From contig JAHFOS010000002.1 of the NCBI GenBank assembly GCA_023261545.1, positions 62,590 through 126,589 of the forward strand: a stretch of 64,000 bases of DNA, in the 5' to 3' direction. Positions 1 to 63,382 of this stretch are shown piece after piece; position 1 is the stretch's first letter, and each line of letters begins with the position of its first letter. The position numbers and the translations under genes are program-made. Origin of the DNA: a bacterium (GTDB taxonomy: Bacteria > Planctomycetota > JADGBV01). The notes under the pieces were generated by a model. The model did no database searches, had not been told where the DNA came from, and worked only from the letters and a program-made list of their open reading frames with translations.

Positions 1-3000
1 TAGGTAATCTTGATATTGCCAAGGGCACGGGTGTAACCGGCAACGCCGGGCCAGCTATAGGTCACAACGCCACCCTCCGGCTTGGGCGCCAGTTCCAGAG
101 GCAGCATCACGCCCGTGGGGGTATGGCTGAGGTAATACTGTTCCACCGCATCGGGATAGCCATTGCGGTTGCCATCCGTGGATACAGGCAGATCCGCCGG
201 AGGAACGGTTGAAGAAGAACTGGTGGTAGAGGAAGTGGTTGTTGTTGTCGTCGTGCTCCCCGTGCCACTGGAGGTGCCAGAAGTTCCCCCTGAGCTGGTG
301 CTCGACGAAGTGCTACCCGAAGTCGTGGTACCGCTGCCGGAGCTTGAAGTGCCTCCCGCCGTCGTGGTGCCGCTGGAAGTATTGCCGGAAGATGTTCCGC
401 TGCTGGAGCTTGAGGAACCTCCCGTACTGCTGTTCCCAGAGGACGTGCCCGTCCCGCTCGTCGAGTTCCCCGAGGACGACCCGCCCGTAGTCGTGGTCAC
501 GGGGGGATACTCATAGTAGATTTCATCCAGATAAAAGACCTGCCGGACCTGGTCGGCCGACCCAATGCCGAACCACGAGAAGGGGTTGACGATCCTGGAG
601 AGGTCCTGGCCGCTCATGTCCAACTCGTATTTCGTCCACGCCTTATTCAGCGTCAGGGTGCCCGACTTCGGCGGAGTTTTTGCAGAATCCCCGTACTTCT
701 GCCCGTTCAACGAACCCATGGTGAAGGAAACCTTTTCCCCGCCGTCCTGGCCGCGCGCCCAGAAGACCAGCTTCTTGGCACCCGTCAGATCATAGGCCGG
801 ATTTTCCTGAGCCGACGGGACATCGCCCCAGTAGTTGGGCTGCGCGACCACCGCCATCCCGCCCCACCAGGGATCCTTGTAAGTGATGTCGTACTTGATG
901 CAGTGGGAGCCGGACTGGGGAGTTTCGGCACAATTGTAGGTCGAAGCGTTGATGGTCGCGCCGTCCAACATCCAGTTGGTCCAGTAGCCGTGGTTGCTGG
1001 CATCGTCGGAGTCCTTATAGACGTAGAACTTACCGTCGCCGGCATTGCCCGATGACGATCCGCCGCTGGAAGCGCCCGAGGTGCTGCCACCCGTGCTGTT
1101 CCCAGAGGATGTGCCGGTGCCGCTGTTACCCGTCGTGCCCCCGGTGGTGTTCCCAGAGGAGGACCCCGACGTGGAACTGCTGGAATATTCGTAATACACG
1201 TCATCCAGATAGAAGACCTGCCGGACCTGGTCGGCCGACCCAATGCCGAACCACGAGAAGGGGTTGACGATCCTGGAGAGGTCCTGGCCGCTCACGTCCA
1301 GCTCGTATTTCGTCCACGCCTTATTCAGCGTGAGGTTGCCCGACTTCGGCGGGGTCTTCGCAGAATCCCCGTACTTCTGCCCATTCAGCGATGCCATGGT
1401 GAAGGAAACCTTCTCCCCGCCATCCTGGCCGCGCGCCCAGAAGACCAGCTTCTTGGCACCCGTCAGGTTGTAGGCCGGATTCTCCGGCGCTGACGGAACA
1501 TCGCCCCAGTAATTGGGCTGTGAGACGACCGCCATTCCGCCCCACCAGGGATCCTTGTAGGTGACGTCATACTTGATGCAGTGGGATCCGGAATGGGGCG
1601 TCTCGGCACAATTGTAGGTAGAGGCATTGATGGTCGCCCCGTCCAGCATCCAATTGGTCCAGAACCCATGGTTCAGCGGATCCTCCGCGTCCTTGTAGAT
1701 GTAGAAGTTCCCGTCACCGGCGTTGCCCGAAGAAGACCCGCCCACAGTCGTGGATCCGCCAGAGGAATTGCCCGAGGCGGTGCCTCCCGTGCTGTTTCCG
1801 GAAGATGTGCCGCCCGTGTTCGTGGATCCGCCGGAGGAGTTCCCCGAGGAAGTCCCTCCCGTGCTGTTCCCGGAAGACGTGCCGGTGCCGCTGTTGCCGG
1901 AACTCGTGCCGCCTCCGCTCGCGGAGTTGCCCGATGACGTTCCAGACCCGCCCGTCGTGGAGTTCCCGGAAACGGCAAACTCGTAGTAAATTTCATCTAG
2001 GAAGAAAACCTGCCGGACCTGGTTGCCCGATCCGTACCCGAACCAGGAGAAGGGGTTGACGATCCTAGAGAGATCCTGCCCGCTGACATCCAGCTCGTAT
2101 TTCGTCCACGCCTTATTCATGGTCAGGGTGCCCGACTTCGGCGGGGTCTTTGCAGAATCTCCGTACTTCTGCCCATTCAGCGATCCCATGGTGAAGGAAA
2201 CCTTTTCCCCGCCGTCCTGGCCGCGCGCCCAGAAGACCAGCTTCTTGGCTCCCGTGAGGTCGTAGGGCGCCGAGCCCTCCGGCAGCGGCACATCGCCCCA
2301 ATAGTTTGGCGCCGCGACCACCGCCATCCCGCCCCACCAGGGATCCTTGTAGCTGATGTCGTACTTGATGCAATGGGTGCCGGACTGGGGAGATTCTGTG
2401 CAATTGTAGGTTGATGCATTGATGGTCGCACCGTCCAGCATCCAGTTGGTCCAGTAGCCGTGGTTGCTGGCATCGTCGGAGTCCTTATAGACATAGAACT
2501 TGCCGTCGCTGGCGCCCGTGGTCGATCCCCCGGAGGAATTGCCCGAGGCGGTGCCCCCCGTGCTGTTCCCGGAGGATGTGCCGGTGCTGTTGCCCGAAGT
2601 AGTTCCCGTCGTGCCTCCGGTGGTGTTCCCAGAGGATGAGCCTGTCGTGGAACTGCTGGAAAATTCGTAGTACACGTCATCCAGGAAGAAGACCTGTCGG
2701 ACCTGACTGGCCGACCCAATGCCGAACCACGAGAAGGGGTTGACGATCCTGGAGAGGTCCTGGCCGCTCACGTCCAGCTCGTACTTCGTCCAATCTTTAT
2801 TCAGCGTCAGGGTGCCCGACTTCGGCGGGGACTTCGCCGAATCCCCGTACTTCTGTCCATTCAGCGATCCCATGGTGAACTGAACCTTCTCTCCGCCATC
2901 CTGGCCGCGCGCCCAGAAGATCAGCTTCTTGGCTCCCGTCAAATTGTAGGGCGGACTCTGCGGGGAGGCCTCGACGTCACCCCAGTAATTGGCTTGCGAC

Positions 3001-4664
3001 ACCACCGCCATCCCGCCCCACCAGGGATCCTTGTAGGTGATGTCGTACTTGATGCAGTGGCTCCCGGAATGCGGAGTTTCGGCGCAGTTGTAGGTGGAGG
3101 CGTTGATCGTCGCCCCGTCCAGCATCCAGTTGGTCCAATACCCGTGGTTCAGCGGGTCGTCCGCATCCTTGTAGATGTAGAAGTTTTCACTGCTGGTGTT
3201 GCCCGAGGATGATGCGCCGCCCGAGCTGGTGTTGCCAGAGGACGTGCCCGTATCCGTTGTGGACTCGGGGGGCAACGCGGCGGGCGCCGTCGGCACGGGC
3301 ACCGATGAGTCGCTGTAAAAAGGGAAATCCGCAACGGCCGACTTGTTAGCCCCATCGCGCGCGTAGGCGAAAAAGCGGTACGCGCCAGCGGTGGACGGAA
3401 CCTTGAAGATGGCTTTGCCGCCGGACTTCTGCACGATGGCGCCCTGCACCACGGCGGGCGCGGAATTCACGCCTCCGAACCAGTCGGTATAGTTGGGGAT
3501 TTCAGGGCGCACTTCGTAGGTATAGGTGAGCGCGGCGCCTTCAGGGTCCGTCACGTTAAAGGTGACAAGATACTGGCCGCTGGGAGCCACCTTGGCTTGG
3601 GCCGCCGTGCTGCTGATCGAGCTGATTTCCGGGGCGCGATTGGTCGGGTACGTCCCTTTCCATGCATATTGCAGGGTATCAATGGCGCCCAGGGGATAAC
3701 CCGCCCAGGTCTCGGTCAGGAACATGGAAAACCAAGCATGGGTGCAGACGTAGCGTTGATTCGGCTCGATGCCCCAGAAGTAGGCGTAACCCCCCAAGCT
3801 ATAAGTCTTCACGGCGGTATTGCTGGGCTTGACGATGCTGGAGTTCCACTGCGATAGGTAGGAGGTTGCCTTCTGTGTGCTCGTGAGATCGATCCGGGCA
3901 GACCAGGACGTGGTGGGAGCTTGTCCCCAGGGCGCCCTGGGCCCGAATTCCGTGACCATGTAGGGCCGATCCAGTCCGGCGCCAACAATCGTGCTCGCCA
4001 AGGCGTCCATGTCGCCCCCGTAAGCATTGATGCCGATGGTGTCAAGGCTAGGGCAATAGGTTTTGACCGCGTCCATCTTGGACTTGGTGATCATAGCCCA
4101 AACCGTGGACGTGGGGTGGTTCGGATCCGCCGCTTTGATGGAGGCCGCGAGCTGCTGCACCGCATTCCAGACGTTGGCATCGGCGCCGCCTTCGTATTCG
4201 TTGCCGATGCTCCAGATGGCGATGGCGGGGTGATTCTTGTAGGTGTTGACGTAAGCAAGCAGGCGGTCGTGCTGCTCCTTCACCTGCGCCGCGTTGGCAT
4301 AGCTGATTTCGCCCGGCTTTGAGATCCACAGGCCCGCGCACACCGTCAACCCCAGGGCCTGCGCGCGGTCGTAGGTCTGGGGATCTGAGGCGGCACCCCA
4401 GGTACGCACGGAGTTTCCGCCAGCATCCTTGATAGCCTGCAAGTAAGCGCTGGTGCTGAGGCTGCTGTCCACGCCGCCGCCCTTGAGGAAATAGGCGGCG
4501 CCATCGTGCGTGAGGCCGTAGCTGCCGTCTCCGTTCTTCACCACTTTCGTGACGCCGGCTTCAGCTCCTCCCAGCAGCGCGACGGCTATGCCGCAGAAAA
4601 TAAAAAACAGCGCCGGCACCCCGGCGAAGCCCCGCGTGCGGGACTGTAGCGTTGATTCTTTCAT
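1..4664 (-). CDS. Partial (3' end off-window) giant secreted modular glycoside hydrolase. Domain order: signal peptide, clan GH-A (GH5-like) TIM-barrel catalytic domain, Ig-like domain, four tandem ~230-aa CBM-like beta-sandwich modules joined by G/S/T/N-rich linkers, Thr/Ser-rich tail
   Basis: Manual reverse-complement translation from ATG at 4664-4662: MKESTLQSRTRGFAGVPALFFIFCGIAVALLGGAEAG (signal peptide). Catalytic motifs AIWSIGNEYEG (acid/base Glu) and YMVTEFG (nucleophile Glu) are typical of clan GH-A. Repeated module WTNWMLDGATINASTYNCAETPHSGSHCIKYDITYKDPWWGGMAVV...GQDGGEKVSFTMGSLNGQKYGDSAK...KAWTKYELD occurs four times. No stop codon before window position 1, which explains why the ORF track (complete ORFs only) lacks it. 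Confidence 0.75.
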   Translation of the reverse strand, partial: MKESTLQSRTRGFAGVPALFFIFCGIAVALLGGAEAGVTKVVKNGDGSYGLTHDGAAYFLKGGGVDSSLSTSAYLQAIKDAGGNSVRTWGAASDPQTYDRAQALGLTVCAGLWISKPGEISYANAAQVKEQHDRLLAYVNTYKNHPAIAIWSIGNEYEGGADANVWNAVQQLAASIKAADPNHPTSTVWAMITKSKMDAVKTYCPSLDTIGINAYGGDMDALASTIVGAGLDRPYMVTEFGPRAPWGQAPTTSWSARIDLTSTQKATSYLSQWNSSIVKPSNTAVKTYSLGGYAYFWGIEPNQRYVCTHAWFSMFLTETWAGYPLGAIDTLQYAWKGTYPTNRAPEISSISSTAAQAKVAPSGQYLVTFNVTDPEGAALTYTYEVRPEIPNYTDWFGGVNSAPAVVQGAIVQKSGGKAIFKVPSTAGAYRFFAYARDGANKSAVADFPFYSDSSVPVPTAPAALPPESTTDTGTSSGNTSSGGASSSGNTSSENFYIYKDADDPLNHGYWTNWMLDGATINASTYNCAETPHSGSHCIKYDITYKDPWWGGMAVVSQANYWGDVEASPQSPPYNLTGAKKLIFWARGQDGGEKVQFTMGSLNGQKYGDSAKSPPKSGTLTLNKDWTKYELDVSGQDLSRIVNPFSWFGIGSASQVRQVFFLDDVYYEFSSSSTTGSSSGNTTGGTTGTTSGNSTGTSSGNSTGGTASGNSSGGSTTGASDGKFYVYKDSDDASNHGYWTNWMLDGATINASTYNCTESPQSGTHCIKYDISYKDPWWGGMAVVAAPNYWGDVPLPEGSAPYDLTGAKKLVFWARGQDGGEKVSFTMGSLNGQKYGDSAKTPPKSGTLTMNKAWTKYELDVSGQDLSRIVNPFSWFGYGSGNQVRQVFFLDEIYYEFAVSGNSTTGGSGTSSGNSASGGGTSSGNSGTGTSSGNSTGGTSSGNSSGGSTNTGGTSSGNSTGGTASGNSSGGSTTVGGSSSGNAGDGNFYIYKDAEDPLNHGFWTNWMLDGATINASTYNCAETPHSGSHCIKYDVTYKDPWWGGMAVVSQPNYWGDVPSAPENPAYNLTGAKKLVFWARGQDGGEKVSFTMASLNGQKYGDSAKTPPKSGNLTLNKAWTKYELDVSGQDLSRIVNPFSWFGIGSADQVRQVFYLDDVYYEYSSSSTSGSSSGNTTGGTTGNSGTGTSSGNSTGGSTSGASSGGSSSGNAGDGKFYVYKDSDDASNHGYWTNWMLDGATINASTYNCAETPQSGSHCIKYDITYKDPWWGGMAVVAQPNYWGDVPSAQENPAYDLTGAKKLVFWARGQDGGEKVSFTMGSLNGQKYGDSAKTPPKSGTLTLNKAWTKYELDMSGQDLSRIVNPFSWFGIGSADQVRQVFYLDEIYYEYPPVTTTTGGSSSGNSTSGTGTSSGNSSTGGSSSSSSGTSSGNTSSGTTTAGGTSSSGSGTTTSGSTSSSTSSGGTSGTSSGTGSTTTTTTTSSTTSSSSTVPPADLPVSTDGNRNGYPDAVEQYYLSHTPTGVMLPLELAPKPEGGVVTYSWPGVAGYTRALGNIKIT
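560..3250. repeat. Four tandem near-identical ~690-780 bp direct repeats (coding repeats of the CBM-like module inside the giant hydrolase gene)
   Basis: The same antisense artefact ORF (MPNHEKGLTILERSWPL...FLAPVRS) recurs at 565, 1243 and 2023 on the + strand. The minus-strand translation gives four copies of the same module with only a few substitutions. Confidence 0.8.
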
Positions 4665-16723: not shown

Positions 16724-16781
16724 TGGAGACAGACTTGAAGGGGAGTTGCGTGGGGTTTACAGGCGCGGTCAGGTTATTTAA

Positions 16782-17036
16782 GGCTCATCCGACTAATGCG
16801 TACTTTTCTGGAGTTTTTAACACGGGTGCACGGTCGAGCAAGGCTAGAACCAAAGCGAGCTGCCGGGGGATTTTCCACAGATTGCACAGATTAACACTGA
16901 TAATAATCAATCCGGGCCATCCTTTCTAATCGGTGCAAATCTGTGTAATCTGTGGATGCTCCCGAGTTGAGAACGCAGAGAGCCGAGAACAAATGAGGGG
17001 GAACCCTGCCAGAGGTACGCATTAGTCGGAGGCGCC
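16782..17036. mobile_element. MITE-like non-autonomous element, copy 1 (~255 bp). It has ~22-bp terminal inverted repeats and an 8-bp target-site duplication TTATTTAA
   Basis: Left end GGCTCATCCGACTAATGCGTAC, right end GTACGCATTAGTCGGAGGCGCC. Flanking direct repeats TTATTTAA at 16774-16781 and 17037-17044. Internal inverted pair CCACAGATTGCACAGATTAACAC / GTGCAAATCTGTGTAATCTGTGG. A second copy lies at 62931-63181. Confidence 0.6.
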
Positions 17037-17087
17037 TTATTTAAAGCGCCAACTGTGCAGGCAAGGTAAGACATGGCATGCACATGG

Positions 17088-17501
17088 CTAAATTTTTCCA
17101 ACATTGGCTTTTCCCACAAAACTCTCCAGCGTCATAATCTCTACCTCCGGCGCGTATTCGATATGATTCCGGAGTCCTCCGCTCGTGTAGAATTCCCGAA
17201 GACGCCACCCCTCGCCGCCCAACACCAAATAGGCCTTCTCGAACTCGCCGCTTCGCACCGCCTCCAAAAGGCAGATGATTTCGAATGGCACCTTCTGTTC
17301 CGCTGTTCCCCCTACCTGCTGCCATTTGAGAGACAGCAGCATTTTTCGGCTGTTCTTTGCGATTACGGCGTCCACCTTATGCAGACCACCACCCGGCCTT
17401 CTGCCGATATTGACCTGCTTTTCCCACACATATCCGCCGTGATTCAGGGCGGGCAGCACCATCGCTTCGAGAATCCCTCCGGTGCTGGTGTTTCGCCCCA
17501 T
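17088..17501 (-). CDS. Putative small restriction-endonuclease-like protein (PD-(D/E)xK-like fold) coupled to the Dam-family methyltransferase
   Basis: Translationally coupled (1-nt overlap) directly downstream of the methyltransferase. Motif pattern: helix with Glu (GGILEAMV), then HKVDAVIAK, then LLSLKWQ (S-x-K in place of E-x-K). Locally lower GC. Confidence 0.45.
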   Translation of the reverse strand: MGRNTSTGGILEAMVLPALNHGGYVWEKQVNIGRRPGGGLHKVDAVIAKNSRKMLLSLKWQQVGGTAEQKVPFEIICLLEAVRSGEFEKAYLVLGGEGWRLREFYTSGGLRNHIEYAPEVEIMTLESFVGKANVGKI

Positions 17502-18382
17502 CAGAGATTACGCAGTGCTAGTATCTCGCGTACTGGTGTGCGATCCCCGGTGCAACTGATGCGCCGGGGAGCCTTGAGGAATGCCAGCTTGTAGCCGAGG
17601 TTCTCATAGAGGCTCACTATGCGATCCGTGGCCTGATTGGAGAGAACCACAGGGCCCGGATGACGACACAGCCAATTGGCTAGGCGTTCTTGGTCCGCCC
17701 ATGTGAAGTCCTCTTTGGCGTAACGTGTAAACTCAACATCGTAGGGCGGGTCAGCGTAAACAAAGTCATCAGGGAGAAGCGACACCTTCTCAAAATCTTC
17801 GCAGAGAAATGTCCATCGCCGTGTCACCGTGCGAAAGCTCGTGAAGTCCCGGGCGTAGTTGATGGTGGCATAGCGGCCGAAGGGGACGTTAAATTTTCCA
17901 CTGCTGTTGAAACGGCAGAGGCCGTTGAATCCCGTGCGGTTCAGGTAATAGAACAGGGCTGCCGCCTCGCCGCTCTTGCGGCCACCATTGGAAATCAAGG
18001 CATTGAAACTTCGGCGATTCTGTTCGTAGACGTCTCGGTCATTCATCATGCACACATCAGCAAGTGCGCCGCGCTTCAAAGCCCGATAGAAGTTAATGAG
18101 GTGGGGGTTAATGTCATTGAGAAGAGCTCGGGAAGGTCCAAATCCCAATGTGACCGCCAGCCCCCCGCAAAAAGGCTCCACGAGACGACGGCTGCGGTAC
18201 GGTACCCAGAGGGGTAGCAAGTGTGGCACCAACCATCGCTTACCCCCCGCCCATTTGAGAGGTGGTGTCGAGGCGCACTTCCGCGCGCTTTTCCCAAACA
18301 TTGTCGCCGGTGCCGCCATCTTATTCATCACCCGGTCCATCTTACCCCCTCCCCAAAGCCGCAAATGTCCGATTTCGTCCAC
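17501..18382 (-). CDS. Dam-family N6-adenine DNA methyltransferase
   Basis: PLKWAGGKRWL (motif I region of the Dam family) and catalytic DPPY (YADPPYD). The true start is probably an internal Met (MNKM or MFGK). Confidence 0.85.
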   Translation of the reverse strand: MDEIGHLRLWGGGKMDRVMNKMAAPATMFGKSARKCASTPPLKWAGGKRWLVPHLLPLWVPYRSRRLVEPFCGGLAVTLGFGPSRALLNDINPHLINFYRALKRGALADVCMMNDRDVYEQNRRSFNALISNGGRKSGEAAALFYYLNRTGFNGLCRFNSSGKFNVPFGRYATINYARDFTSFRTVTRRWTFLCEDFEKVSLLPDDFVYADPPYDVEFTRYAKEDFTWADQERLANWLCRHPGPVVLSNQATDRIVSLYENLGYKLAFLKAPRRISCTGDRTPVREILALRNL

Positions 18383-18719
18383 ATTCTATTCACTCCCCCT
18401 GGCGCGGCTTCCTGCTGGCCCACACCCTCTGTCTCGCCTACCTCGCCATCTTCCTGCGCTTGCGGCGCATCCCCCTGTCCCACGAGCGCGCGGCGCTGGC
18501 CTGCACGCTGATCTTCGGCCTGCCGGCGCTGCTTGTTTTCCTTTCCCCGCCGCTTTTCAAGAAGCGCGCCGCCTGCAGCGCCTGCCGCCAGCGTATTCCC
18601 GTCACCTTGCCCACCTGCCCCTGCTGCGGGGCGCCGACGTCGTGAGGCGATAGGTCTGCCGTGCGTCCCAGAGGGAGATGGCGGCGTATCCAGCTCGCTA
18701 TATCGGATAGCATGTTACA

Positions 18720-19010
18720 ATGATCAAGAGTATCGCGGGCCGGATCACACAGGATATCTACGATGGCACGGATAGCCGAAACGCGCGCAAGGTTCCCGTC
18801 GAGCTGCACGGCAAGAGCCGTCGGCTCCTGGATCAGATCAACGCGGCCGCGCGCATTGAAAATATGCGCGTTCCCCCCGGCAACAGGCTCCAGGCCCTTG
18901 CCGGCGATCGCAAGGGTTTTTGGAGCATTCGCGTCAATGATCAATGGAGGGTCGTGTTTCGCTGGATCGACAACGACGCTTATGATGTGGAAATCACGGA
19001 TTACCATTAA
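18720..19010 (+). CDS. higB: HigB-like toxin (RelE/ParE superfamily, plasmid maintenance system killer)
   Basis: MIKSIAGRITQDIYDG...PPGNRLQALAGDRKGFWSIRVNDQWRVVFRWIDNDAYDVEITDYH matches the HigB signature (GNRLE.L.GDR.G.WSIRIN.QWRI.F.W....A..V.I.DYH). Confidence 0.8.
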   Translation: MIKSIAGRITQDIYDGTDSRNARKVPVELHGKSRRLLDQINAAARIENMRVPPGNRLQALAGDRKGFWSIRVNDQWRVVFRWIDNDAYDVEITDYH

Positions 19011-19019
19011 GGAACGCTG

Positions 19020-19316
19020 ATGTTGCCAAGAAACCGACCGCCCACCCATCCCGGAGAGATGCTTTTCAAAGAGTTCATTGAACCGAGCGATATCACGCAG
19101 AGTGCTTTTGCCAGGCACCTGGGCTGGTCTTTCGCCAGACTCAATGAGATCGTGCGCGGCAAGCGCGGCGTCACCGCAGACTCGGCTCTATCTTTCGGTG
19201 AGGCGTTGGGCACGGGACCAGAATTCTGGCTCAATCTGCAAAGGAATTGGGATTTGTGGCATTCGCAGCGGAAACATAGGCCGGTCGGACCCCTTAAATC
19301 GTTGGTGAGGCGCTGA
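19020..19316 (+). CDS. higA: HigA antitoxin (XRE-family helix-turn-helix)
   Basis: HPGEMLFKEFIEPSDITQSAFARHLGWSFARLNEIVRGKRGVTADSALSFGEALGTGPEFWLNLQRNWDL is the canonical HigA HTH. Located 10 nt downstream of higB. Confidence 0.8.
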   Translation: MLPRNRPPTHPGEMLFKEFIEPSDITQSAFARHLGWSFARLNEIVRGKRGVTADSALSFGEALGTGPEFWLNLQRNWDLWHSQRKHRPVGPLKSLVRR

Positions 19317-21700: not shown

Positions 21701-21825
21701 TTTCATAATAGTTCCGCTCTGTCGAAGATTTTCCAGCCGTTCGCCCTTCATCCCCAGCTTTGGGGGATGAGTTTTTCGAATGGCCACGAAGCGGGCCACT
21801 AGGGGTGGATAGCGGTGGTGCCGAG

Positions 21826-21866
21826 ATCCGTTCATGCTTCGACAAGCTCAGCACGAACGGATCTGA
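21826..21866. terminator. Perfect hairpin (9-bp stem, 21-nt loop) between convergent moeA and moaD. The sequence is related to the REP-like repeat family
   Basis: GATCCGTTCATGCTTCGACAAGCTCAGCACGAACGGATC; the loop sequence CTTCGACAAGCTCAG is shared with the elements at 33826, 34892 and 47215. Confidence 0.4.
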
Positions 21867-21917
21867 TTGCCATTCACTTCAAACGAAAACCCATTCCTCG
21901 GGCTGAATTGTGTAGGC

Positions 21918-24924: not shown

Positions 24925-25110
24925 AAATACGAATTCTTTCACCACAGAGAACACCGAGGGCACAGAGCGTTCACCTAGCCATGCTAAGCCTGAGCGTAGG
25001 CCTCCGACATAATTTTGAATTTTCAATGGATTTTTCCTCTTATTCTTGTCCGTTCTCTGTGTTCTCTGTGCCCTCTGTGGTAAAATATTCTTTTAAAAAA
25101 CCAAAAGGGT
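24925..25110. repeat. Palindromic intergenic element (~185 bp) with imperfect inverted repeats of about 30 bp, sitting between two convergent genes
   Basis: Left arm TTTAAAAAATACGAATTCTTTCACCACAGAGAACACCGAGGGCACAGAG. Right arm CTCTGTGTTCTCTGTGCCCTCTGTGGTAAAATATTCTTTTAAAAAACC. Confidence 0.4.
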
Positions 25111-29059: not shown

Positions 29060-29212
29060 GGCCGATCCTGGAAAGTAAAGGGGTACGGCTTCTTAGCCGG
29101 CCTCTCCAAAGCTCAAGCGCAAGAGCGCAATCCGGTCTGCGTAGGGGCAACCGGTGGTTGCCCCCTTGTGGTTGCCCCATGTGTTGTTGTCCCCGCCGTG
29201 GATTTCCCGGAT

Positions 29213-29283
29213 GTAGGGCACCCGGTGGGTGCCCCCCCGGTGGGTGCCCCCCCGGTGGGTGCCCCCCCGGTGGGTGCCCCCCC
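29213..29283. repeat. Tandem 15-bp direct repeat (GGTGGGTGCCCCCCC, about 4.5 copies) in the recA upstream region; G7 tracts on the minus strand
   Basis: cacccggtgggtgcccccccggtgggtgcccccccggtgggtgcccccccggtgggtgccccccc. It is translated as GGHPP repeats in a spurious ORF. Confidence 0.7.
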
Positions 29284-29296
29284 ACAAGGAGCGCCC

Positions 29297-33825: not shown

Positions 33826-33960
33826 CTGTAAGCGTTCAGCCCGTAATTGCCTTCGCATCGCGGCATCAACAACCAGGCCCGTTCGTGCTGAGCCTGTCGA
33901 AGCATGAATGGGCCGAAACCTCCCGCCGTTCACCCTTCGACAAGCTCAGGGCGAACGGCG
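33826..33960. repeat. REP-like double-hairpin repeat element, copy A (~135 bp), immediately after the sucC stop
   Basis: GTAAGCGTTCAGCCC...AGGCCCGTTCGTGCTGAGCCTGTCGAAGCATGAATGGGCC...CCGCCGTTCACCCTTCGACAAGCTCAGGGCGAACGGCG. Each half is a stem-loop, and the two loops are complementary to each other. Confidence 0.55.
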
Positions 33961-34003
33961 AGCGACTTTTCGATAGGGCGGACTACTTGCTGTCGCATTT
34001 TGG

Positions 34004-34891: not shown

Positions 34892-35018
34892 GTAAGCGTT
34901 CAACCCACGGAACGTGTCTTCGTCTTACCACCGGCATTCAGGTCCGTTCTTGCTGGGCTTGTCGAAGCATGAACGGGCCGTGACCGCCCTTGCCGTCCAC
35001 CCTTCGACAAGCTCAGGG
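34892..35018. repeat. REP-like double-hairpin repeat element, copy B, immediately after the sucD stop
   Basis: GTAAGCGTTCAACCCACGG...GGTCCGTTCTTGCTGGGCTTGTCGAAGCATGAACGGGCC...CCGTCCACCCTTCGACAAGCTCAGGGCGAACGGCGG. Confidence 0.55.
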
Positions 35019-35055
35019 CGAACGGCGGGGTACACGCGATGCTTGGGTAAAAAGA

Positions 35056-45955: not shown

Positions 45956-46777
45956 GTGTCTAGGAAGTCAAAGGTCAACACCAAAGAATTTAATTTTTTT
46001 TCGGCCAAAGGACTTTTTGTTAAAGAACACGGAGAAATATTGAGGCCGTATGCTAAAATAGTAATTGGTAATTGTAGCAACGAGGCTTCCACCGAGGGTC
46101 TTGTAATTATGAGCGATCCTGGGGGTGCATCAGAAAAGGAGGATGAAAAAGATGATGAGGGTCTAATTAAGGTCGAACCGGACCCGACCATGAAAAGTAT
46201 TTTTGGGCACATTCGTCTGATAAAAATGGAGTGGGACGATGCCACATGGGAAAAAGATTTTAACTTGACCCTTCATATTCTTAATTTGATACCCATTGAT
46301 ACTAAAAATAAATCTGCGTGCAAAACGCTTGCCGATATCGAACAAATGAGGAAAATATTTAAAAAAATACGATTAAATTATGCGAATTATAAATTTTTCT
46401 GGCTTGCATGGGGCTCGAATAAGAAAATAAAAATTAATGATAATTGTGACATAAAGTCTATTGCAGTTACAAAGCCCCCTCGAGATAAAAAAAATTCTAG
46501 TTGCTGTTGTGATGGCGAGGGGAATTTTAATAGTAATCTTTTAGTAATTCATAAAAAATTTGATATTATAAAAGAAAACATTGGGCTTCTAAATTGCTTA
46601 TTGAAGGCTAAAATATATGAAAAAATAGTGGGAGATCCTGGGGAAGATGAATGGGAATCCAGTTGCGCGGATATTGTTAAGAAAACTTGGAGGCACCCAC
46701 TTTCGCGCATGGAGCACACAAATTGGCGTCGAATATTGCACGGCATTTCTCAGGCGTGCTGTCCCCCCGCAAATTAA
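45956..46777 (+). CDS. Hypothetical ORFan protein in a strongly AT-rich (~35% GC) island
   Basis: 273-aa ORF, Lys/Asn/Ile-rich, with no motif recognised. The composition contrasts sharply with neighbours, which suggests horizontal acquisition. Confidence 0.45.
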   Translation: MSRKSKVNTKEFNFFSAKGLFVKEHGEILRPYAKIVIGNCSNEASTEGLVIMSDPGGASEKEDEKDDEGLIKVEPDPTMKSIFGHIRLIKMEWDDATWEKDFNLTLHILNLIPIDTKNKSACKTLADIEQMRKIFKKIRLNYANYKFFWLAWGSNKKIKINDNCDIKSIAVTKPPRDKKNSSCCCDGEGNFNSNLLVIHKKFDIIKENIGLLNCLLKAKIYEKIVGDPGEDEWESSCADIVKKTWRHPLSRMEHTNWRRILHGISQACCPPAN

Positions 46778-46783
46778 TTCTCC

Positions 46784-47113
46784 TCACCTCCCATCCCCAC
46801 TCCCCCCCAAGACCCCGCGGCTCTTCCTTGACCCCAGTTTCGCGAGGTTCCCCGCGGCGACATCCTCCAGGCTGACGCCCAGTTCGCTGGCCATGTTGGA
46901 AAGGTACCAGAGCACGTCGCCCATTTCCTTCATCAGTTCCGGCTTGGCTTCCGCCGTGACCTCCCCTTTGTCGTCGCGCAGGACTTTCTTGATCTTGTCG
47001 GCGACTTCGCCGGTTTCTCCGCACAGCCCTAGGCCGGTGTAGGGGAGGTTCTTGCCCACATCCGGGTAAAACGCGAACTCTCGGGCCTTGTTCTGGTATT
47101 CGGAAAATGTCAT
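46784..47113 (-). CDS. MazG-like nucleoside-triphosphate pyrophosphohydrolase (small all-alpha NTP-PPase)
   Basis: EYQNKAREFAFYP...YTGLGLCGETGEVADKIKK...EMGDVLWYLSNMASELGVSLEDV matches the MazG family EExxE and metal-binding helix pattern. Confidence 0.7.
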   Translation of the reverse strand: MTFSEYQNKAREFAFYPDVGKNLPYTGLGLCGETGEVADKIKKVLRDDKGEVTAEAKPELMKEMGDVLWYLSNMASELGVSLEDVAAGNLAKLGSRKSRGVLGGSGDGR

Positions 47114-47214: not shown

Positions 47215-47350
47215 GTAAGCGTTCAACCCATGAATCGCATCCGCGCATTGTGGCGCCAACCCAGGCCCGTTCGTGCTGAGCCTGTCGAAGCATGAACGGG
47301 CCGCGACCCCACCGCCGTCCACCCTTCGACAGGCTCAGGGCGAACGGCGG
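47215..47350. repeat. REP-like double-hairpin repeat element, copy C
   Basis: GTAAGCGTTCAACCCATGAATCGC...AGGCCCGTTCGTGCTGAGCCTGTCGAAGCATGAACGGGCCGCG...CCGCCGTCCACCCTTCGACAGGCTCAGGGCGAACGGCGG. Confidence 0.55.
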
Positions 47351-47538
47351 GTAGTTCTTTATCATGGCTGAACGCTTACATATTTTTCAAGCGACTATGA
47401 TTCAACTGGTTACGGCGAAAAATAATTCGCTTCAAAACACAACTCTTTTGCCACCCAACCGAGGCTTTCTTGAGCAGCAGGCGCCGGTCCAGGGATGTGG
47501 CGGAACAAAAAGCTGTCCCGCTTATGCTTTTTACACTT

Positions 47539-50472: not shown

Positions 50473-51096
50473 TCAAAGAGCACACCATGCGGCTGATTCT
50501 TGGCGGCTATCCAAAACCATGAGCTGACGGCCTTCCTGGTCCGCAAGAACCCATCGCCGCAGATCGATAGTCAACCCCTCGAAATGGATTTCGAAATTAA
50601 CGCTTTGGATCCCAGTGGCAATGACGATATGCGGCTCCCAATCCTCGTCCAGTTCGAAATTGAAACCGGCCTTCTCGTAAAAGTCCCCTTGCAAATCCTG
50701 GTAAAGTGCGCAGAACTCCTGAGATTCGAGATGCCACATCAGCCGGTCGCCCTCGTGGGATAATTTGTCCACGGAGCAACGCAAAAGGAATCTGGTAGGC
50801 TTGTAGCCTCGCAGGACTTCGCCGGCCCTCGCCGGATCGCCCTGGCCAACGAACCAGCGCTTCACCGGCACATGCCAGTGCTCTGGCCTCACCAAGCGGG
50901 CTTTGGGGTTTTCCTTGAGGATCTCGCCGATGGAGTCCACGACCGCTTGGAGTTCCAGGGAGTGGTTACGTTTCTCGAAGACCGGCGTGGCGGCCAAAAG
51001 CCAGCCTTCGTCGGTGCAGCTTGGGTTGCCGCCAGCAACGCGGATGGAGACGTCGAAGGGGAAAGAGCCGGAACGCCACCTCTCTGAAATCGTCAT
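50473..51096 (-). CDS. Hypothetical protein (207 aa), possibly a degenerate 2H-phosphoesterase (LigT-like) fold
   Basis: Two H-x-[TSPV]-x-like sites: RPEHWHVPV and EPHIVIATG, spaced as in 2H enzymes. Speculative. Last full gene of the ATPase operon. Confidence 0.5.
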   Translation of the reverse strand: MTISERWRSGSFPFDVSIRVAGGNPSCTDEGWLLAATPVFEKRNHSLELQAVVDSIGEILKENPKARLVRPEHWHVPVKRWFVGQGDPARAGEVLRGYKPTRFLLRCSVDKLSHEGDRLMWHLESQEFCALYQDLQGDFYEKAGFNFELDEDWEPHIVIATGIQSVNFEIHFEGLTIDLRRWVLADQEGRQLMVLDSRQESAAWCAL

Positions 51097-51100
51097 CTGA

Positions 51101-52216
51101 TTAAACAGTAAACAAGGGCTTTAAAATTTCATGTACTTTGTTGTAACCATTTGCAATTCGCTCGCTCCAACTTTTACCTTCTATGGGTATCGCGATGCCC
51201 CAATGGCGGTCTCTGGTTACTAGCGGCTTATTTATTTTTAGAGAGAGCGCATAGTTCTCAAGAAATTTTCCACTCTCCTTTTTCTTATCAGCAGTTAACC
51301 ACAATAACTCTGGAGTGGAGTTGGTCTCATCACCAGGAAAAATCCAACAGCCAAACCAAAAATCGCTTCCCTTGTCACGGCTCCCCTTGTCACGCAGCGT
51401 ATAACCGCAAGCTATACTGGAACTATATTTTCCACCCATTCCCTTGGTTGCATTAAACCGTTGTATGAAGCCGGGACCGCATTTCAGTCGCTCAATAATT
51501 TCAAAGACAACCCGATCAATCTCAAACAAGCACATGATAAACTTGCCCCTGTTGTCATCAAATTGTGACGTTGATTGCAAAAAATGCGGATCAATATTTT
51601 TCATGACTTCTAGAACCTCCTTTGAGTAAAATGTGCAATTAGTGCGATCTGGCTCGATCCTCGCATTGTTATTTATCGCATTACTAATTAGCTTCTGGAT
51701 ACGCTGCCAGCTAATTCCGACGAAATTAATGGATGGGTGCGCTTCTCCATTGAGGGGGTACTCATCGTTGTTTTCTTCAGCAAGGTGTATGCGCCATTTT
51801 GGTTTGGGGATGGTTGAAAACTGCGCGATATCGATCTTTGGCTTGAGACTTAATTCGGGAGCAATTACGACAAGAGCATTCTTGTCCCTTTTCGGGACAT
51901 CGAGCTCTCCTAAATATTTCCCCGGCTGATCGTCCGTCCATTTTGCGTCAATCTTAGACTCGATGACGACCACAAAATTCTTGTCAACCCATTTAAGATC
52001 ATATCGCCCATCTCCTTTGTCGGTTCCCTGCTGAGTATCGCAAGAGATGGGAGATTCGTTGCCGATTTCTCCCTTTCCTTCATCTTTCCAGATTAATTGG
52101 GCAAACCCTCTTCGGAATTCAGGACAGTACTCGATGAGAAAGGCGAGCGACTCTGTGACCTGATCTTCCGGTTTTGGTCGGCCCAACAGTCGCAGCAAAA
52201 GATGTCGCCGGCTCAT
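51101..52216 (-). CDS. Hypothetical protein with an N-terminal PD-(D/E)xK nuclease-like motif, encoded by a low-GC gene
   Basis: GDGRYDLKWVDKNFVVVIESKIDAKW follows the D...(E/D)xK pattern. The gene is about 40% GC while the flanking genes are above 60%. 52-bp gap to the upstream ATPase gene. Confidence 0.55.
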   Translation of the reverse strand: MSRRHLLLRLLGRPKPEDQVTESLAFLIEYCPEFRRGFAQLIWKDEGKGEIGNESPISCDTQQGTDKGDGRYDLKWVDKNFVVVIESKIDAKWTDDQPGKYLGELDVPKRDKNALVVIAPELSLKPKIDIAQFSTIPKPKWRIHLAEENNDEYPLNGEAHPSINFVGISWQRIQKLISNAINNNARIEPDRTNCTFYSKEVLEVMKNIDPHFLQSTSQFDDNRGKFIMCLFEIDRVVFEIIERLKCGPGFIQRFNATKGMGGKYSSSIACGYTLRDKGSRDKGSDFWFGCWIFPGDETNSTPELLWLTADKKKESGKFLENYALSLKINKPLVTRDRHWGIAIPIEGKSWSERIANGYNKVHEILKPLFTV

Positions 52217-62843: not shown

Positions 62844-62930
62844 GGATCTAAAAGCCGGCCATTGTGGGACATGCCGGGCCGGTGCAAACCCGGCTCGTCA
62901 GCGTTTATTTGACGACTTCCGCCAAAAAAG

Positions 62931-63181
62931 GCTCACCCGAATAATGCGTACCTTTCTAGAATTTTCACGCCGGTGCCTGGTCGAGCAAGACCGGAACCAA
63001 ATTTAGCTGCCAGGGGGATTTTCCACAGATTGCACAGATTAACACAGATAATAATCACGCAGGACCGTCTTTTTTAATCAGTGCAAATCCGTGTAATCTG
63101 TGGATGCTCCCGAGTTTGGAGCACTGAGGAGCAAGAAAAATAGGGAAGACACTGCCGAAGTACGCATTATTCGGATGAGCC
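62931..63181. mobile_element. MITE-like element, copy 2 (~250 bp), with an 8-bp target-site duplication CAAAAAAG, inserted upstream of / overlapping the 5' end of the ECF sigma factor ORF
   Basis: Left end GCTCACCCGAATAATGCGTAC, right end GTACGCATTATTCGGATGAGCC. Flanking direct repeats CAAAAAAG at 62923-62930 and 63183-63190. The internal sequence is near-identical to copy 1. Confidence 0.6.
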
Positions 63182-63382
63182 TCAAAAAAGCCTCGCGCGC
63201 TCGGAACGCCATGGCCTGGACGGAGACTCCTGGTAAAATGCCTGAAGATGAAGGCGCCATGACCCCGGTCGTAGAAGAAGAAATCGCGGCTCCCTCTTTA
63301 CCCCCCATTTTGGAGGGGTTATCCCCTGTTTTAGGGGAGGTGGGGGACGAACTCCTAGCCGGGGCCGAACTCTGCGCCGCCA

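Follow-up and report, generated by a model that had tools for sequence, protein, structure and literature searches.

A probable ISL3-dependent miniature element in a Planctomycetota genome and the conserved palindromic module at its core

We analyzed a 64,000-nucleotide stretch of DNA from a bacterium of the Planctomycetota lineage JADGBV01 (assembly GCA_023261545.1, contig JAHFOS010000002.1, positions 62,590 to 126,589 of the forward strand), referred to here as the window, in which a sequence-only reading had proposed two copies of a miniature inverted-repeat transposable element (MITE). Reading of the window together with alignment of the two repeats placed both where they had been reported and in the same orientation, copy 1 at 16782-17036, exactly as given, and copy 2 at 62930-63181, rather than starting at 62931. 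The element measures 252-255 bp, and the only open reading frames (ORFs) that cross it are two of 70-74 aa that enter from the flanks. The identity of more than 85% claimed for the pair was an overestimate, as 206/256 positions agree over the element (80.5%). By segment, identity is 86-91% in the terminal repeats, 97% and 94% in the unit arrays described below, 75% in the left arm, 63.5% in the right arm and 76% in the core spacer. As stated previously, the element is non-autonomous: no transposase is encoded within it or elsewhere in the window (tblastn versus ISL3, E > 0.7).

Both copies begin with a 22-bp end and finish with its reverse complement, in agreement with the inverted termini claimed for them. 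When the window was searched with this end (GGCTCAYCCGAMTAATGCGTAC) at up to 3 mismatches, 4 matches were found, exactly at the four element ends, while 100 shuffles gave none. The terminal inverted repeats of copy 1 are GGCTCATCCGACTAATGCGTAC (16782-16803, plus strand) and GGCGCCTCCGACTAATGCGTAC (17015-17036, minus strand, 2 mismatches), and those of copy 2 are GGCTCACCCGAATAATGCGTAC (62930-62951, plus strand) and GGCTCATCCGAATAATGCGTAC (63160-63181, minus strand), the last a variant that also occurs in metagenome loci L132, L133 and L145. Perfect 8-bp direct repeats had been described around each copy. This is correct for copy 1, in which TTATTTAA abuts the left terminal repeat (16774-16781) and recurs unchanged at 17037-17044. 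For copy 2, the flanks in register with the 22-bp repeats, CCAAAAAA (62922-62929) and TCAAAAAA (63182-63189), agree at only 7/8 positions; the 8-mer CAAAAAAG is present on both sides, but lies one base out of register on each. The flanking duplications are AT-rich in both copies.

The interior of copy 1 consists of a left arm of unique sequence (16804-16866, plus strand) that lacks similarity to the ISL3 elements described below (blastn matched the termini only), a core palindromic module (16867-16962) that forms the central hairpin of the predicted fold, and a right arm, likewise unique (16963-17014, plus strand). A nested palindrome built from a tetrad of units had been proposed for the core. 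The palindrome was borne out, but each arm contains three units instead of two, giving a 3+3 array. The left units of copy 1 are CACAGATT at 16876-16883 and 16885-16892 and CACTGATA at 16895-16902, and after a spacer the right units are AATCGGTG at 16928-16935 and AATCTGTG at 16938-16945 and 16947-16954. The core of copy 2 (63015-63110) is arranged in the same way, with CACAGATT at 63024-63031 and 63033-63040 and CACAGATA at 63043-63050 on the left, and AATCAGTG at 63076-63083, AATCCGTG at 63086-63093 and AATCTGTG at 63095-63102 on the right. The third unit is degenerate, reading CACTGATA/CACCGATT in copy 1 and CACAGATA/CACTGATT in copy 2. Seven exact copies of CACAGATT occur in the window (expected, 1.06), all within the two elements, and the extended pattern CACAGATTNCACAGATTNNCAC picks out both core arms in both copies. 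Each element is predicted to fold into one long hairpin (z = -8.9 and -9.3).

Ends that begin GGCTC, together with 8-bp duplications, are ISL3-like; 8-bp target-site duplications are the norm in the ISL3 family according to ISfinder, and IS31831, IS1411 and ISPpu12 are examples of its insertion sequences. We used this resemblance as a lead and tested it with a metagenome scan, querying with a form of the terminal repeat in which positions not constant in the window were degenerate. The scan returned 31 loci, 25 of which contain an ISL3 transposase gene that ends in the terminal repeat, with its stop codon inside the repeat. In L139 (236-1548) and L149 (450-1757), two perfect inverted 22-bp repeats, respectively 1313 and 1308 bp apart, enclose a single ORF of 410 or 413 aa, and the full elements are flanked by 8-bp duplications (ATATTTCT and TCAAAGAA, respectively). 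Both ORFs matched DDE_Tnp_ISL3 (E values of 7e-76 and 4e-70), HTH_Tnp_ISL3 and Zn_ribbon_ISL3 in Pfam, and scored 326 and 318 bits against NCBIfam transpos_ISL3, for which the cut-off is 180. Both ends of L139 and of L149 have the same sequence as the 22-bp repeat of the window, with the left end of copy 1 matching each at 22/22 positions. Autonomous relatives with matching terminal repeats, for which the sequence-only reading had suggested a search, were therefore found among these metagenome loci.

The right repeat of the full elements encodes the C-terminus of the transposase (...KYALVG) and its TGA stop. The transposases of the 25 loci are 50-80% identical to the reference transposases of L149 or L139, and the repeat is strongly conserved among them, probably because the end of the ORF is encoded within it. 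Among annotated relatives of the transposase, the best is encoded on a Pseudodesulfovibrio profundus plasmid, where it is labeled 'ISL3 family transposase' (54% identity). L149 is flanked by a DUF1501 gene and a PQQ/BamB-like gene, a pair that is presumably associated with Planctomycetota and Verrucomicrobiota. Similarity between the window element and the full elements is confined to the 22-26 terminal bases (blastn), and a plasmid search with the MITE gave no match. Four metagenome contigs contain a different, 317-bp non-coding element with the same ISL3-type ends (L130 831-1147, L137 1250-1566, L143 485-801 and L146 503-819), which is unrelated to the window MITE, is devoid of CACAGATT units and displays no clear 8-bp duplication.

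Taken together, these findings indicate that the two window elements are very probably copies of one MITE that depends on an ISL3-family transposase, since their ends match those of full ISL3 elements with perfect repeats and 8-bp duplications. As judged from the alignments, the element appears to be a MITE in the usual sense, rather than one derived by simple deletion from any of the elements found here. It is an addition to a known kind, the ISL3-family MITE, and as such is ordinary and well explained. We suggest that it was mobilized in trans by an ISL3 DDE transposase. A transposase of this type, supplied by a full-length ISL3 element elsewhere in the genome or formerly present in the lineage, would bind both ends, and insertion would proceed at AT-rich sites by way of cuts staggered by 8 bp. 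The choice of AT-rich targets in a genome of 62-65% GC would place copies in promoter-proximal intergenic DNA.

Several observations weigh against this interpretation. Neither the 64-kb window nor the few short contigs of the genome revealed a full-length ISL3 element with such ends, and for this reason we can only infer a cognate transposase in the host. Empty sites were not found among the related contigs, as the two discussed below and the gene spacing all indicate that the element is present. Close relatives are confined to the strain level; outside the lineage, the nearest homologue of the sigma factor that flanks copy 2 is only 50% identical. The duplication of copy 2 is imperfect in register. 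We detected no relationship between the interior of the element and any ISL3 element, leaving an origin by internal deletion unsupported. Finally, the 20% divergence between the copies may mean that the family is no longer active.

We searched for relatives of the locus by exact-protein look-ups and through a member of the 90%-identity cluster of the sigma factor. One contig, L120, represents the same strain (99.9% identical) and contains the element. The other, L176 (European Nucleotide Archive ERZ27280021 k141_3912786), comes from a related strain, carries an element at 1078-1331 and, starting at the element and continuing to the right, shares 97.5% identity with the window. In a three-way alignment, the right 100 columns of the L176 element, together with its right flank, proved 100% identical to copy 2, whereas the left 152 columns represent a distinct variant that shares 88-91% identity with copy 1 and 82-83% with copy 2. 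The left flank is occupied by a different gene, encoding an S-adenosylmethionine (SAM)-dependent methyltransferase, and the flanking 8-mers no longer match (ATTAAAAA versus TCAAAAAA). Further copies thus appear to exist, here as a third variant within a chimera. Because L176 joins the right half of copy 2 to the left half of the third variant, the family has at least 3 members and these recombine. The simplest reading of the alignment is homologous recombination between copy 2 and the third member, with a crossover that would lie near the right unit array. The loss of matching flanks in the recombinant, whereas the window copy keeps them, supports the view that the flanks are true target-site duplications. 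The copies are accordingly substrates for homologous recombination. As deduced from gene coordinates, two contigs of a publicly available short-read assembly, one at each of the two window loci, stop ~57 and ~77 nt into the element, which is the expected effect of a dispersed repeat on assembly. The MITE therefore accounts for an assembly-breaking repeat and, as the chimeric copy illustrates, marks sites of strain-level rearrangement.

Copy 1 had been placed at the border of a low-GC island. It lies instead within a mildly low-GC island and not at the edge, with genes for a PD-(D/E)XK nuclease and a D12 adenine methylase on one side and a 181-aa ORF on the other. The part of the island that adjoins the copy (17088-19316) encodes a PDDEXK_11 nuclease, the D12 adenine methylase, a 180-aa ORF, and a pair consisting of a HigB-like toxin and a helix-turn-helix antitoxin. 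The placement of copy 2 upstream of an extracytoplasmic function (ECF) sigma factor gene was confirmed: with the start called in public data (231 aa, start 63238), the copy ends 57 nt before the start codon. Copy 2 is also 87 nt upstream of a divergent gene of 796 aa.

Since copy 2 is situated directly upstream of the ECF sigma factor gene, it may affect the regulation of that gene. We considered whether the element is mainly a mobile regulatory cassette, in which an outward promoter or an RNA hairpin formed by the core alters expression of the adjacent gene, namely the ECF sigma factor or the 796-aa gene in the case of copy 2 and the 181-aa ORF in the case of copy 1. Consistent with such a role, the left ends of all 3 known copies face a gene start at a distance of 25-92 nt, the end of copy 2 is close to the sigma factor start codon, and the cores of copies 1 and 2 contain a weak sigma-70-like site at an equivalent position on the minus strand. 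However, the score of these promoter-like sites is only 9/12, a level at which chance alone would give 0.3-0.5 sites, and the L176 variant has lost the -10 hexamer (TGATAATAATCA to TGACAACCATCA). Moreover, three of three orientations corresponds to p ~0.125, and a preference for AT-rich targets alone accounts for promoter-proximal insertion. We consider a primarily regulatory element unlikely on these grounds, and favor its being a MITE moved by an ISL3-family transposase.

The core of this MITE is conserved to a degree that its other parts are not. Between the copies, 64/67 positions are identical in the unit arrays compared to 103/145 in the rest of the interior (Fisher p = 2e-5), making the arrays the most conserved segment of the MITE, above even the terminal repeats (94-97% compared to 86-91%). 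One explanation would be that the element's own transposase binds the CACAGATT units as subterminal sites, in the manner of the subterminal repeats of Tn7, Mu, IS21 and the plant Ac/En elements, which would make the units part of the transposition machinery. Inverted arms of three direct units each, spaced at 9-10 bp, do resemble multi-site transposon ends, and the strong conservation of the units would fit as well. Nevertheless, units were absent from every ISL3 locus found with the terminal repeat (0/25 loci that bear a transposase gene and the same ends), they are located at the center of the element, ~95 nt from the ends, and identical free-standing arrays occur at 119 or more loci without these terminal repeats and without target duplication. 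We therefore regard a role as transposase sites as very improbable. Because full-length ISL3 relatives lack the units, these are not needed for ISL3 transposition, and the central 3+3 palindrome appears to be a separate module carried by the MITE and not required by ISL3 elements. The much higher conservation of the core is an argument for constraint, and the independence of the module from ISL3 elements an argument for a constraint other than transposition.

The free-standing arrays were found by scanning a genome collection (2 x 596 Gb) with CACAGATTNCACAGATTNNCAC, a pattern that imposes two units and their spacing and contains 19 fixed bases. The scan identified at least 119 loci, compared to a calculated expectation of ~4 by chance. 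By record title, the matches listed include 62 from Bacteroidota, 11 from Planctomycetota, 9 from Verrucomicrobiota, 8 from Chloroflexota, 4 from anaerobic methanotrophic (ANME-1) archaea, 3 from Firmicutes, 3 from Acidobacteriota, and others. Cultured carriers among them are Bacteroides cellulosilyticus, B. rodentium, and several Flavobacterium and Chryseobacterium species, so questions about the module are directly testable. None of these matches had the arms or the terminal repeats of the window element, which contradicts a restriction of the arrays to ISL3-ended elements.

Within the matches listed, the arm consensus is TTnnC-CACAGATT-W-CACAGATT-NN-CACAGATT, and the third unit is conserved even though the search pattern left it free (A75 G90 A97 T86 T71%). 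Most commonly, an array of three direct units precedes one of three inverted units; single arms are also frequent. For 49 palindromes, the variable closing bases outside the first unit are shared by the two arms in 63% (position -3) and 96% (position -2), compared to ~27% by chance, whereas the spacer bases between units agree at about the chance level (55, 51 and 22%). This pattern suggests a stem that closes beyond the units, with the spacers forming regular internal mismatches. Other perfect triple arrays with related units numbered 166 in 805 kb of array loci, compared to 0 in 93 kb of ISL3 control loci.

Array sites are predominantly intergenic (76/86 among the matches listed) without preference for the 3' ends of genes, and the hairpin often takes up most of a short intergenic gap. 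Among the same matches, 43 gene contexts are codirectional, 18 divergent and 15 convergent, in keeping with the lack of a 3'-end preference. The arrays showed no clear orientation bias relative to genes. We detected no target-site duplication around 40 free-standing palindromes, as judged by 3-8 bp direct repeats at offsets of 0-7 relative to permuted flanks. The window itself contains a free-standing 3+3 palindrome outside any MITE (24940-25082), with a period of 9 nt and very AT-rich flanks, between convergent ORFs. Its left arm consists of CACAGAG (24943-24949), CACCGAG (24952-24958) and CACAGAG (24961-24967), and its right arm of CTCTGTG at 25055-25061, 25064-25070 and 25073-25079. Thus, the host genome carries the triple-repeat class of palindrome independently of the MITE.

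The module also occurs in viral sequences. In a collection of viral contigs, triple arrays were found at 24 loci for CACAGATT, 43 for CACGGATT and at least 120 for CACAGAG, compared to 0 and 0 for two composition-matched scrambled patterns. Arms in the viral loci are mostly single. These counts bear on the suggestion that the wide occurrence of CACAGATT is an artefact of applying a short tandem pattern to a very large database, and the core a private palindrome without meaning. Although the search pattern did impose two units and their spacing, and DNA near the matched loci holds many other short tandem repeats, this suggestion is at odds with the excess of matches over the chance expectation, the conservation of the unconstrained third unit, the inverted partner arm with matched closing bases in the 49 palindromes, the failure of the scrambles to yield any viral match, and the finding that no other part of the MITE is as well conserved as the arrays. 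We accordingly give an artefact very little credence.

Several further observations concern individual array loci. Small genes of the GxxExxY type (PD-(D/E)XK-like) abut CACAGATT arrays in 4/119 of the matches listed (L015 259-1213, L076 97-1084, L083 908-1313 and L052 6287-7350), with runs of 10-20 units beside the gene in L076 and L015, and a four-helix-bundle gene adjoins the array in 1/119. In Frigoriflavimonas asaccharolytica (L042 6065-7977), a tandem array with a period of ~180 bp and at least 9 units bears one CACAGATT/CACGGATT hairpin in every unit. In Bacteroides rodentium JCM 16496 (L108 6748-6831), the CACAGATT hairpin is extended by an outer palindrome of 16 nt. This extended hairpin also lies 30-120 nt from the ends of five human-gut viral contigs (L153, L159, L161, L164 and L175) and matches an unannotated faecal phage record at 98.6%; a search of a phage collection with one hairpin returned only unannotated records. 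Alternating arrays, in which a constant ~25-nt segment (TTTTTCTCATTGATTATTTWAGTCC) is interleaved with triple-unit blocks whose unit changes (CGCAGAT, CACAGATT, CATGGATT), are found near the ends of viral contigs L154, L166, L167, L168 and L172 (IMG/VR sample 3300045988 and others). An apparent enrichment of the motif at contig ends holds only in part, because each locus is an 8-kb tile of a contig; ~11 cases lie at true contig ends. Three other candidate identities for the module were rejected. A DnaA box is disfavored in that GATTNCACA is only a partial match to TTWTNCACA, the full box is present only in arms preceded by TTATC, and the motif also occurs in archaea. An intrinsic terminator is disfavored by the absence of terminator-like sites and of a 3'-end preference. 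Distant arms do not delimit an autonomous element, as those of L093 flank leuS and those of L047 lie among flagellar genes.

With respect to function, our best guess, which we hold with low confidence, is that the module operates through a hairpin, in single-stranded DNA or in RNA, through sequence-specific binding to the array, or through both. The protein-binding array that the sequence-only reading had seen in the units may thus be real, although, as set out above, binding by the ISL3 transposase is very improbable. The covariation of the closing pairs favors a hairpin, while the many single arms in phage contigs favor a linear sequence-specific site, and both roles may hold. With similarly low confidence, we attribute retention of the module to selection acting on it directly rather than on transposition. 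The 3+3 palindrome possibly belongs to a large and apparently undescribed class of repeat modules in bacteria and archaea, a view that we put forward tentatively. Each array grouped in this way has three units, 7-8 nt long and in direct orientation, at a spacing of 9-10 nt, and the units conform to CAC-R-G-A.. (CACAGATT, CACGGATT, CACAGAG and others). The arrays are often paired with an inverted array, are intergenic, and are found in Bacteroidota, Planctomycetota, Verrucomicrobiota, Chloroflexota and other phyla, in ANME-1 archaea and in phage contigs. The covariation of the closing bases but not of the spacers and, in this MITE, the stronger constraint on the arrays than on the transposon ends suggest that such modules may be functional. 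As to what the function might be, the matches listed share no common neighboring gene, in addition to the lack of orientation bias and target duplication. If the view of a large class is true, the module would either act in a sequence-specific manner, for instance as a processing hairpin or as the target of a conserved protein that binds nucleic acids, or have its own route of spreading, and the ISL3 MITE would be one vehicle for it. A cargo module that is kept more tightly than the transposon ends that carry it, and that recurs in distant phyla and phages, points to an unrecognized binding site, processing signal or very small mobile unit.

The window contains other repetitive or compositionally unusual regions. 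At 451-3250, a unit of 680-790 bp is present four times in tandem, with 77-92% identity between copies and with shorter internal repeats; this is presumably a repetitive coding region. A second repeat family, unrelated to the MITE, consists of imperfect palindromes of ~35-45 nt (CCGTTCGTGCTGAGCCTGTCGAAGCATGAACGG/CCGTCCACCCTTCGACAAGCTCAGGGCGAACGG) in direct and inverted orientation at 4 loci (21803-21871, 33870-33962, 34933-35029 and 47261-47351). A 15-bp tandem repeat (CCCGGTGGGTGCCCC, ~5 copies) lies at 29191-29295, and the kilobases at 46001-47000 and 51001-52000 are sharply AT-rich, with GC fractions of 0.43 and 0.45, respectively, compared to ~0.63 for the window.

The last alternative, that the element is not a transposon but a repeat of the repetitive extragenic palindrome (REP) or REPIN type, associated with a REP-associated tyrosine transposase (RAYT, Y1/HUH), or else a structured noncoding RNA gene with coincidental flanking repeats, is scarcely credible, since, despite the long stable hairpin, the intergenic location, and a core palindrome that in other genomes behaves like REP doublets (singlets and inverted doublets without target duplication), its ends are identical to ISL3 terminal repeats, 8-bp duplications flank the full elements as well as the window copies, its arms are not palindromic, GTAG or CGTC tags are lacking, and its best sub-threshold Rfam hit was a chance match to mir-254 (24.6 bits compared to a cut-off of 70). 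At the gathering score, Rfam 15 gave no hit in the whole window and no family on the elements or hairpins, and in 18 hairpin-carrying loci it gave only unrelated RNAs elsewhere (tRNA, riboswitches and Flavo-1). The REP superfamilies are defined by a 20-40-bp palindromic unit, one end of which carries an unpaired tag, GTAG or CGTC (PMC3733652).

Compared to known systems, the window element shares with ISL3 insertion sequences its GGCTC ends and AT-rich 8-bp duplications, and with MITEs derived from insertion sequences its non-autonomous nature, its size of less than 300 bp and its hairpin fold. The ISL3 relatives found here are ~1.3 kb in length and encode one ORF with zinc ribbon, helix-turn-helix and DDE_Tnp_ISL3 domains; unlike the window element, they carry no conserved internal palindromic module. 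Correia, ERIC and RUP elements, which form long RNA hairpins and can affect the expression and recombination of neighboring genes, are similar in that they measure ~100-250 bp, have terminal inverted repeats and are found next to genes, but differ in their terminal repeats and duplication lengths (TA for Correia). We know of no Correia, ERIC or RUP element reported to contain a module common to several phyla.

The core module has its own set of likenesses. REPINs are doublets mobilized by RAYTs, and like REP sequences and REPINs the module is short, intergenic and multi-copy, occurring as single arms and as inverted hairpin doublets without target-site duplication. In contrast to these, its arm is composed of three direct 8-mers at a spacing of 9-10 nt and is neither tagged nor a palindrome, no RAYT association was seen, and its 8-mer is common to many phyla and to phage contigs, while REP sequences are lineage-specific. 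The short tandemly repeated repetitive (STRR) heptamers and small dispersed repeats of cyanobacteria, reportedly described by Mazel in 1990 and by Elhai in 2008, likewise have tandem units of 7-9 nt in intergenic and often inverted arrays, and are nested in larger hairpin-forming or MITE-like elements. Relative to STRR sequences, the module differs in the sequence of its unit, in having exactly three units per arm with fixed 9/10 spacing, and in its taxa, namely Bacteroidota, Planctomycetota, Verrucomicrobiota, Chloroflexota and phages. Literature searches for the 8-mers and 17-mers of the module returned primers only, or nothing, and we found no direct precedent in the literature on GxxExxY, STRR and ISL3 MITEs. 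The module thus resembles REP/REPIN, STRR and small dispersed repeats in behavior, but fails the definition of REP and has a different architecture. It is an unexplained pattern across many phyla that is worth a dedicated census.

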